Below, one piece after another: positions 2,492 through 37,753 of a stretch of 64,000 nucleotides of DNA. The position numbers were made by a program, and so were the translations under genes. Numbering within the stretch: position 1 is the first letter of the stretch; each line of letters begins with the position of its first letter. Under the pieces are notes generated by a model. It was not told where the DNA came from, ran no database searches, and saw nothing but the letters and a program-made list of their open reading frames with translations. The stretch lies in NCBI RefSeq assembly GCF_057098645.1, contig NZ_CM169472.1; one strand, 5' to 3'.

Positions 2492-2838
2492 TTTATTGTT
2501 GCCTGTTTAATATTTTTACAAATATCGCAGTTGAATGTTCAAAGAAAAAGAATTGATATTAATAAAAATAAGTTTGTTTTCTGAAGTAGTGAAAATAGCG
2601 GATGGTGAAAGATATTAATATCAAAAATCGCTCATTGTGGATATAACGATGCAGCAGGGGAGAAAATGACTTCCACGCCTTACACCGTACATTCTTGTTG
2701 TGCGGTATGTAATTATTCTACGCTGTCGGTATTGGTGTATTCGTTAATCAGCAGGTTAACCAGCCACAAAAAGCCATTGAGAAAATTATTGATTTTACAT
2801 GGAATTATTATATTGCCAATCCTTGTTTTTTAAAAATT

Positions 2839-3057
2839 GTGCATAGTGAAAATCAAAGTAAAGGTGTGCATTATGCAAAATCACAGCGTCTCTTAGAAAT
2901 TACCCATGCGCACTTGCAGTTAATGGAATCCTTATTGGATGAAGGGAAGAAACACAATATTTTTAAGCCAGATATCGACCCATTTCAGGTGAATATTAAT
3001 ATTGCTGCGCTTGGGGGATATTATTTGATCAACCAGCATACGCTTGGCCTGGTTTAT
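2839..3057 (+). pseudogene. ytfA: ytfA 5' segment (TetR-like C-terminal-domain fragment) interrupted by IS200/IS605 element
   Basis: ORF starts with GTG at 2839; reading frame runs into IS left end; joining 2839..3057 to 4802..4909 restores an uninterrupted 108-codon ORF. Confidence 0.6.
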
Positions 3058-3114
3058 CCGGTGCGCCGTAAAACCCCGTCCTTCAGGGCGGGGATATACG
3101 GCGCGGTTTTCCAC

Positions 3115-3527
3115 CTAACCAGGTGTTTGCTGTTGTTCAATGTATTGACGGATGGCGGATATTGGCGCACCTCCGCAGCTACTGGCAAAATAGCCAGGAC
3201 TCCACAAAACGCCTTTGTAGTAATACCTGACTGCAATATCTGGTCGATCTCGTCGCAGTAACCTACCCGATACGCCTTTGAGGCTGTTTACCAGACTGGA
3301 TATCGCCAGTTTGGGAGGATAGTTAATTAACAAACGTGATCTGGTTCGCCATCCATTTCAACCAGTTCAGCTTCAAAATCAGCACATACCTTTGAAAAGT
3401 AAGTGCGTAGTTTTTCTGTCGCGTCATGGTCAAAAATCTGGCGTCGGTATCTGGTGACAAAGACCAGGTGAACATGCATCAGGAAAACACAATGCCTTCC
3501 ACGCCGGATATCGGTTTCTTTTTTCAC
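3115..3527 (-). pseudogene. tnpA: IS200/IS605 Y1 (HuH) transposase TnpA, frameshifted
   Basis: N-terminal frame (3327..3527) has HVHLVFVTRYRR and ends at EPDHV-stop; C-terminal frame (3115..3333) continues LINYPPKLAISS...LWSPGYF...IRQYIEQQ; frames offset by one nucleotide inside the HuH motif. Confidence 0.75.
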
Positions 3528-36099: not shown

Positions 36100-36279
36100 A
36101 AAAACTGGCGCGACCTGCCGCGCTATAAACTAAAAAATTACACAAAATCATTCGCACTGCATCGAGACGGAAAGTGAATGAGGGCCGGGGAGCGTACTCG
36201 CAGTACGTGACCCGGTCGAATGAGCGTAGTCGTCGATGAGGCAGTGTGAAGGATGAAGTGTAAATAAAAAAGGAAGTGA

Positions 36280-36669
<390 letters not shown>

Positions 36670-36801
36670 TTCCTTATTGGGCGGTGAAACGTTACCGCCC
36701 AACGCTTTCTTACCCCTCGTAAAATCACCGCCAAATCTCTCTTCACTACGGCATATTTCTGCGTGTCGACGCCATTTTTGCGAGGCGTTTTCCAGAAATG
36801 A

Positions 36802-36835
36802 ATGTAATGCATATGTAATGCTATAATACATTACA
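36802..36835. promoter_or_regulatory. promoter/operator of the DinJ-like ORF: direct repeat atgtaatgc x2 and inverted repeat tgtaatg/cattaca flanking a TATAAT
   Basis: Seen directly in sequence 36802..36835; RBS ggagg at 36851. Confidence 0.4.
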
Positions 36836-36859
36836 CTTTTCATAATTACCGGAGGCATA

Positions 36860-37099
36860 ATGGCCACACTTAACGTCCGCCTGGATGACAAACTGAAAAA
36901 TGAGGCTTATGCGGTGCTGGAAAAATTAAATATCACGCCTACTGAAGCAGTGCGGCTGCTGTTTCAGTACGTTGCGGAAAATGGACGAATGCCGGTAAAA
37001 ACGCTCACTGTCAGTGATAGTGAAGAAGCCTTGTTACGCACTGTCAGGGAACGACTGGCCAACCCACAAGAGACCATTAAGGTCCGGCTGGATGAGTGA
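36860..37099 (+). CDS. RelB/DinJ-family (ribbon-helix-helix) antitoxin-like protein, orphan
   Basis: 79-aa ORF MATLNVRLDDKLKNEAYAVLEKLNITPTEAVRLL resembling DinJ N-terminus; no toxin ORF follows (nrdG stop abuts at 37100). Confidence 0.6.
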   Translation: MATLNVRLDDKLKNEAYAVLEKLNITPTEAVRLLFQYVAENGRMPVKTLTVSDSEEALLRTVRERLANPQETIKVRLDE

Positions 37100-37564
37100 T
37101 TAACGCAAATGATGCACCACCTGATTGCTGCTGCCGCGCCAGATCAGGGAAGGGTCTTTTAAATCCTGCACAAATTTGCCGTCGACCAGCACGTTAATCA
37201 AATCAACAACCTGCATTTGCGCAGCGTTGAGTTCGTCGAGTTTATAGCCTGTCCACACCCAGATGTCTTTACCCGGACACTCGGCGCGGATGCGTTGTAC
37301 CAGTTTCAGAATATCCGGCACGTTTTGCGGATGCAGCGGGTCGCCGCCGGAGAGGGAAATACCCTGGCGTTTGATACGAGTGTCATTCAGATCGTTAATG
37401 ATCTGGTCTTCCATTGCTTTGGTAAATGGCTGACCGGAATTTACCCGCCAGGTGCTTTTGTTATAGCAACCGGGGCATTCATGAACACACCCGGAGACAA
37501 ACAGGGTGCAGCGAGTGCCGGGGCCGTTGACGATGTCGACAGGATAGTACTGATGATAATTCAT
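37100..37564 (-). CDS. nrdG: anaerobic ribonucleotide reductase activating protein (radical SAM)
   Basis: 154-aa ORF with CxxxCxxC (GCVHECPGC) radical-SAM motif. Confidence 0.95.
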   Translation of the reverse strand: MNYHQYYPVDIVNGPGTRCTLFVSGCVHECPGCYNKSTWRVNSGQPFTKAMEDQIINDLNDTRIKRQGISLSGGDPLHPQNVPDILKLVQRIRAECPGKDIWVWTGYKLDELNAAQMQVVDLINVLVDGKFVQDLKDPSLIWRGSSNQVVHHLR

Positions 37565-37569
37565 TGTTT

Positions 37570-37745
<176 letters not shown>

Positions 37746-37753
37746 AGTGCAGA

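Follow-up and report, generated by a model that had tools for sequence, protein, structure and literature searches.

Wedged between cybC and the convergently transcribed nrdG in the window (the whole 64,000-nucleotide stretch of Escherichia coli DNA analyzed here) is a 79-codon gene that is very probably the antitoxin gene of an old relBE operon on the chromosome, arranged tail to tail with nrdG, from which the toxin gene has been deleted. What is left would be a vestigial, self-regulated gene, vestigial because the cognate toxin that it would neutralize is gone. The open reading frame is a genuine RelB-family antitoxin gene that is already annotated as such in RefSeq, and the locus is a former pair with no functional toxin-antitoxin system, since the window is without relE but 391 other genomes have a 96-aa relE at this site.

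The gene, relB, spans positions 36860 to 37099 on the plus strand (ATG at 36860 and TGA at 37097 to 37099) and is preceded by a Shine-Dalgarno sequence, GGAGG (36851 to 36855, plus strand), located 4 nt 5' of the start codon and conserved in an alignment of 28 loci. The RefSeq entry for relB in an identical O145 genome, WP_000212717.1, reads "type II toxin-antitoxin system RelB/DinJ family antitoxin" and carries no trivial name. An earlier note on this DNA had assigned the protein to the RelB/DinJ-family ribbon-helix-helix antitoxins and proposed a profile search as a check, and such a search supports the assignment with RelB family scores above the curated cut-offs. The protein matches Pfam RelB (PF04221; E value of 1.9e-15, 57 bits against a cut-off of 22.4), and the best model is the NCBIfam RelB equivalog NF008412 (128.2 bits against a cut-off of 96, with residues 1 to 79 on the 80-position model); the broad superfamily model TIGR02384 (RelB_DinJ) gives 73.7 bits. 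There is also a full-length match to K-12 RelB in the RelBE complex structure 4FXE (E value of 3.9e-20, residues 1 to 79 to residues 1 to 78), residues 1 to 48 align with the RelB N-terminal domain structure 2K29 (E value of 3.2e-13, a sequence match to the ribbon-helix-helix domain), and the C-terminal toxin-binding segment is kept and can be aligned by sequence to residues 49 to 78 of the 4FXE RelB. Of the double label DinJ/RelB, it is the RelB part that stands: in a search of solved structures with the 79-aa protein, RelB structures alone were matched and no DinJ structure was found at an E value of ≤0.01. DinJ (of dinJ-yafQ) belongs to the same broad antitoxin superfamily (TIGR02384) but differs in that the window protein best fits the RelB equivalog, and the partner in the full alleles (WP_001105433.1) is RelE-like, with 65% protein identity to K-12 RelE, and not YafQ. 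That the open reading frame is a chance or misannotated one has small size in its favor and nothing else; this reading has practically no probability left and is refuted by curated-model scores far over the cut-offs, the Shine-Dalgarno sequence, a protein identity of 78 to 91% across enterobacterial genera, and a low dN.

The K-12 RelB protein (relBE of the Qin prophage; structures 4FXE and 2K29) is likewise 79 aa long and can be aligned end to end with the window protein at 47% identity, with the difference greatest in the C-terminal half. Both have a ribbon-helix-helix N terminus that includes R7 and K13, residues that in K-12 are both needed for relO binding and at which alanine derepresses relBE 83- to >100-fold; relative to K-12 RelB, the window protein has the changes S3T, I8L, and S28T at or near DNA-contacting positions. 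The K-12 relBE layout is that of the full nrdG-linked allele, in which relE overlaps the end of relB. Unlike K-12 relBE, the window locus is without relE, and its relB is at a core-chromosome site beside nrdG that is conserved across genera, whereas the K-12 operon is in a prophage. On plasmid pUSDA5905_2 (positions 1223 to 1758 of the extract) and on the M18 chromosome, a Phd/YefM-type antitoxin is the partner of a RelE-family toxin whose gene is about 71% identical to the nrdG-linked relE at the nucleotide level; this Phd/YefM-paired RelE (plasmid RelE WP_001270421.1) is present at 416 E. coli plasmid places and is an example of partner swapping.

At its 3' end, relB directly abuts nrdG (37100 to 37564, minus strand), whose stop codon, TTA on the plus strand (37100 to 37102), touches that of relB with 0 nt between them, as the earlier note had stated. 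It had also reported that no toxin gene follows, and indeed there is no relE-like open reading frame after relB, the cognate toxin gene being absent from the position immediately downstream. Searching the 64-kb window by tblastn with two RelE proteins gave nothing credible as relE; a 28-aa match (E value of 0.044) within an ornithine carbamoyltransferase-like open reading frame is taken as chance. The left edge of the sequence specific to the relB(E) alleles is a terminator-like hairpin of cybC with an 11-bp stem (36677 to 36702, plus strand). The cybC gene itself (cytochrome b562; 36283 to 36669) is an intact 128-aa open reading frame with a signal-peptide-like N terminus; the K-12 cybC is annotated as a pseudogene. 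An Rfam scan of positions 36100 to 37560 found no RNA family. On the far side of nrdG, the nrdG-nrdD spacer (37565 to 37753) contains REP-type palindromic elements and an Rfam naRNA4 match (37668 to 37738; 60.3 bits, barely over the cut-off), and it is 189 bp long in the window versus 157 bp in IAI1.

Searching the locus against 5,426 complete E. coli genomes reveals alleles with both genes, with one, and with neither. A full pair, defined by at least 80% coverage of the full locus and consisting of an 80-aa relB and an overlapping 96-aa relE between cybC and nrdG, is present in 391 genomes (for example, DA33137); about 59 genomes (450 or 451 with relB, minus the 391) have relB only, as the window does; and the remaining genomes, including IAI1 and O157:H7, have neither gene and carry a 44-bp intergenic hairpin instead, with relB absent from about 92% of E. 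coli genomes. The empty-site sequence of IAI1 departs from the window directly after TAATTCCT.ATT and has another hairpin, of 36 bp, in place. The window allele is shared at 100% identity by 24 complete genomes, for which all serotype labels given are O145 (O145:H28 or O145:NM). A synteny comparison, suggested in the earlier note with a YafQ- or RelE-like downstream toxin in mind, therefore finds a toxin at exactly this site in E. coli (391 genomes) as well as in other genera, and its type is RelE, not YafQ; of the options listed there, the toxin-less remnant is the one that the locus comparison bears out directly, through the alleles that retain relE and through the deletion described below.

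In three-way and eight-way alignments, a single, precise 284-bp gap bounded by a short direct repeat sets the window apart from the full pair. One copy of the repeat, CG-A-CTGGATGA, is at the relB 3' end and includes the relE start codon, and the other, CG-G/A-CTGGATGA, is at the relE 3' end; full alleles have 284 bp of relE between the copies, and in the window a single remaining CG(A/G)CTGGATGA copy forms the deletion junction (37085 to 37095, plus strand). Both copies encode R-L-D-E, and relB is therefore still in frame after the deletion, ending in ...VRLDE versus ...VRLDEL in the 80-aa form, with the terminal Leu alone lost and the new stop codon brought up against nrdG. In the window lineage, relE would have been removed via recombination or slippage between the CG(A/G)CTGGATGA copies. 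A72T (37073), a change in the toxin-binding tail, is seen in the window/O145 allele only, among the alleles compared.

Loss of the toxin is recurrent, and Escherichia alone shows at least three routes to its inactivation: the 284-bp deletion, a stop codon at K27 of relE together with a further 1-bp loss (UPEC132 and E. whittamii), and the loss of 2 bp from an (AG)n run of relE (E69). In every orphan allele seen, relB is intact. The UPEC132 and E. whittamii loci (positions 1983 to 2272 and 2733 to 3019 of the respective extracts) have the same AAA-to-TAA change at relE codon 27, within an A-rich run, as well as common variants at the nrdG end, and the UPEC132 locus looks like an E. whittamii-type allele within an E. 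coli genome. The deletion allele is present on at least three or four flanking haplotypes, represented by the window; by IAI39, MB53, and AF3; by SCPM-O-B-8794; and by Escherichia sp. E1V33. At the junction base (37087), the window has G and every other deletion allele has A; the relE-side repeat is polymorphic at this base, being A in GF4-3 but G in DA33137, E69, and UPEC132. At least two independent deletions fit these patterns best, and a single deletion followed by point mutation and recombination is the less likely course. The second CTGGATGA copy is found in Escherichia and in one Trabulsiella genome only, and other genera lose the toxin by point mutation because they do not have this copy.

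The relationship between relBE and nrdG extends well beyond Escherichia. Scanning species-representative genomes with RelB as the query yielded 35 loci, of which 31 have relB, alone or together with relE, directly beside the convergent nrdG. These nrdG-linked loci are in Citrobacter, Salmonella arizonae/diarizonae, Trabulsiella, Enterobacter, Kluyvera, Kosakonia, Klebsiella pneumoniae, Pluralibacter, and others, and the upstream neighbor is variable, being cybC in Escherichia and a PRD-type regulator-like open reading frame in Klebsiella. Because relE adjoins nrdG in many other genera, the relBE pair is read as the ancestral state, and the relB-only and empty states as derived. An intact relB open reading frame of 79 to 80 codons is present at all 35 loci, and relE is intact at 26, truncated or frameshifted at 7, and deleted at 2. 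For 24 intact pairs (relB at 2501 to 2740 and relE at 2733 to 3017 in the locus extracts), dN is 0.089 for the whole of relB, 0.191 for relE, and 0.058 for nrdG. The antitoxin is thus more conserved than the toxin, and its N-terminal, DNA-binding half (dN of 0.055) is about as conserved as nrdG, with the C-terminal half (0.144) evolving faster. In the 31 species representatives, the stop codons of relBE or relB and of nrdG (around 2500 to 3490 in the locus extracts) are a few nucleotides apart at most, and no terminator-like hairpin was found between them or within relB on the nrdG strand; the transcripts of nrdDG and relB(E) are therefore predicted to overlap, necessarily, as antisense.

The region upstream of relB is organized around a set of short repeats. 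Two direct copies of ATGTAATGC are located at 36802 to 36810 and 36813 to 36821 (plus strand) with a start-to-start spacing of 11; the TGTAAT core of the first is invariant across genera, and the second, also with invariant columns, forms the left arm of a palindrome and contributes the TG (36819 to 36820) that leads into an extended −10. The −10 hexamer TATAAT (36822 to 36827, plus strand) is at the palindrome center and has the cross-genus pattern TA.A.T, with T1, A2, and T6 invariant, and the right arm (36828 to 36835, plus strand) is ACATTACA in the window and GCATTACA in all other loci compared. There are thus two direct copies of TGTAATGC and an inverted copy (with a 7-bp arm in the window) across TATAAT. 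In the window the inverted repeat consists of TGTAATG (36814 to 36820) and CATTACA (36829 to 36835), separated by 8 nt with TATAAT inside, whereas all other loci have 8-bp arms, TGTAATGC-N6-GCATTACA, centered on the −10; a longer imperfect inverted pair links 36803 to 36812 with 36826 to 36835. These are the direct and inverted repeats straddling TATAAT to which the earlier note had pointed, and their positions agree with it. In the alignment of 28 loci from many enterobacterial genera, all three operator copies are invariant and their flanks variable: the columns TGTAAT..(N2)..TGTAATGCTA.A.TGCATTAC change little or not at all, and the ribosome-binding-site spacer and the far upstream sequence vary. 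Counting both strands, the 64-kb window contains 16 copies of TGTAATG (the shuffle mean is 7.9), and 3 of the 16 are inside 33 bp at the relB promoter, the copies elsewhere being scattered and single.

The promoter itself would be of the extended −10 type, TGnTATAAT, as TGC precedes the −10. A strict sigma-70 scan of 36600 to 37200 returned no promoter site because the −35 is poor. Upstream of the operator, in the −35/UP region, is a block, TTTTTGCGAGGCGTTTTCCAGAA (36775 to 36797, plus strand), mostly ≥90% conserved in the 28 loci, and it is kept across genera though without a recognizable −35. Several alleles vary in the operator. Among the alleles compared, a G-to-A change at 36828, adjacent to the −10, is confined to the window/O145 lineage and shortens the right arm from 8 to 7 bp. 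The AF3 orphan allele (positions 1501 to 2030 of the locus extract) is missing one 11-bp operator unit, equivalent to window positions 36802 to 36812, and MSB1_4I, judged by length, is probably missing such a unit too, amounting to natural variation in operator copy number.

By sequence, the three conserved TGTAATGC copies that bracket the −10 constitute a candidate autoregulatory operator overlapping the promoter, and the autoregulation-like layout proposed in the earlier note holds up in that this repeat set has a TGTAA core, as does the mapped K-12 relO. The footprinted relO has four contiguous hexads with the core [A/T]TGT[A/C]A, overlapping the −10; RelB dimers bind it on their own, binding becomes tighter when RelE acts as corepressor, and insertions between half-sites abolish repression. 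Both operators overlap the −10 and have TGTAA-core repeats, but in the window the direct copies are 11 bp apart with an inverted copy 8 bp further, in place of the four contiguous hexads of relO. The recognition elements are likely homologous, with the core in common and a different geometry.

Identity, deletion, synteny, and operator conservation are read from the sequence, and from K-12 RelB we infer DNA binding, repression, and protein instability. RelB would bind as a ribbon-helix-helix dimer to the three TGTAATGC copies around the −10, and bound RelB would occlude the −10 and so repress its own promoter. With the RelE corepressor gone, repression is expected to be weaker and conditional cooperativity to be lost. 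K-12 RelB is a Lon-unstable antitoxin, and the 79-aa protein is probably Lon labile as well. Against this account of a self-regulated remnant, relB has stayed intact in all of the orphan alleles seen; the operator geometry is unlike that of K-12 relO, such that the binding mode is not simply transferable; the strict promoter scan is without a sigma-70 site; and both the G-to-A change at 36828 and A72T are unique to the window allele. These two changes could reflect relaxed constraint after loss of the toxin or, equally, altered regulation.

A different reason for the persistence of relB would be that the orphan acts in trans as an anti-addiction antitoxin, kept to neutralize RelE toxins of prophages or plasmids and thereby to block postsegregational killing. 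Reviews name this role as possible for orphan antitoxins, and the window protein keeps the entire C-terminal toxin-binding part, minus the last Leu. Related RelE toxins are mobile, as K-12-type relBE is present in 1,247 of the 5,426 E. coli genomes, including 90 plasmid places, and a relE with about 71% nucleotide identity is on many plasmids. However, these plasmid RelE paralogues are partnered by Phd/YefM-type antitoxins and not by RelB, and they argue weakly at best for protection by an orphan RelB. The K-12 RelB, 47% identical overall, is most divergent in the C-terminal half, the 64-kb window has no relE-like gene, and crosstalk between noncognate toxin-antitoxin pairs is reported to be rare (PMC12301738). 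A role in anti-addiction is accordingly very unlikely.

The conservation of the locus raises another alternative, in which RelB is a toxin-independent regulator, and RelB and its operator are kept for the control of other promoters or of the nrdDG 3' end via convergent transcription, with the toxin dispensable. The contrast between relB and relE (dN of 0.089 versus 0.191, with the DNA-binding half at 0.055 close to the 0.058 of nrdG) speaks for this, as do an intact relB at 35 of 35 related loci where relE is broken at 7 and deleted at 2, toxin loss by at least three different routes within Escherichia, and the stop-to-stop arrangement with nrdG in 31 species representatives, which leaves no room for a terminator. 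Yet the decay of a toxin-antitoxin pair has only one viable order, in which the toxin must go first, and an orphan antitoxin is therefore the expected intermediate on the way to an empty site, even without selection. Moreover, the loci were ascertained through a RelB search, which favors intact relB; all of the broken relE genes are still recognizable, such that the losses look recent, and an old relB-only locus was seen in no genus; relB, too, is gone from about 92% of E. coli genomes; and TGTAATG occurs elsewhere in the window only as scattered single copies. We regard a regulator of this kind as very improbable. In a related formulation, which we consider quite improbable, RelB and its promoter would have a toxin-independent role, such as setting how much antisense transcription enters the anaerobic ribonucleotide reductase operon, nrdDG, from its 3' end. 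What suggests this is that the DNA-binding half and operator are conserved to a degree like that of nrdG, that the toxin, evolving at about double the rate, has been lost time and again, and that the locus always faces nrdDG stop to stop with no intervening terminator. If this were true, the O145 "orphan" would itself be the part of the locus that matters functionally. The reading that we prefer remains that of an antitoxin left behind by deletion of its toxin.

As such, the gene is an uncharacterized example of a well-known kind, the orphan antitoxin, and is already annotated; a search of the available literature for the relBE-nrdG locus and its protein accessions found no relevant paper. Orphan antitoxins are abundant in all E. 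coli sequence types in a survey of 950 genomes, which ascribes some of them to gene loss (PMC10790755), and with orphans this common in E. coli, the importance of the window gene alone is limited. Like the orphans of that survey, it is an antitoxin without an adjacent toxin, but unlike them in general, the loss event is visible here at base resolution and the intact pair survives elsewhere at the same site. One locus in one species thus displays all stages of decay, from the intact pair through nonsense and frameshifted toxins and repeat-mediated toxin deletion to the empty site; its synteny can be traced across the family, and its operator sequence is strongly conserved. What remains curious is that the linkage to nrdG is family-wide and that the antitoxin is so unusually conserved, and the locus offers a potential natural experiment on a RelB repressor without its corepressor and on the protection that an orphan antitoxin may give against incoming relBE elements.
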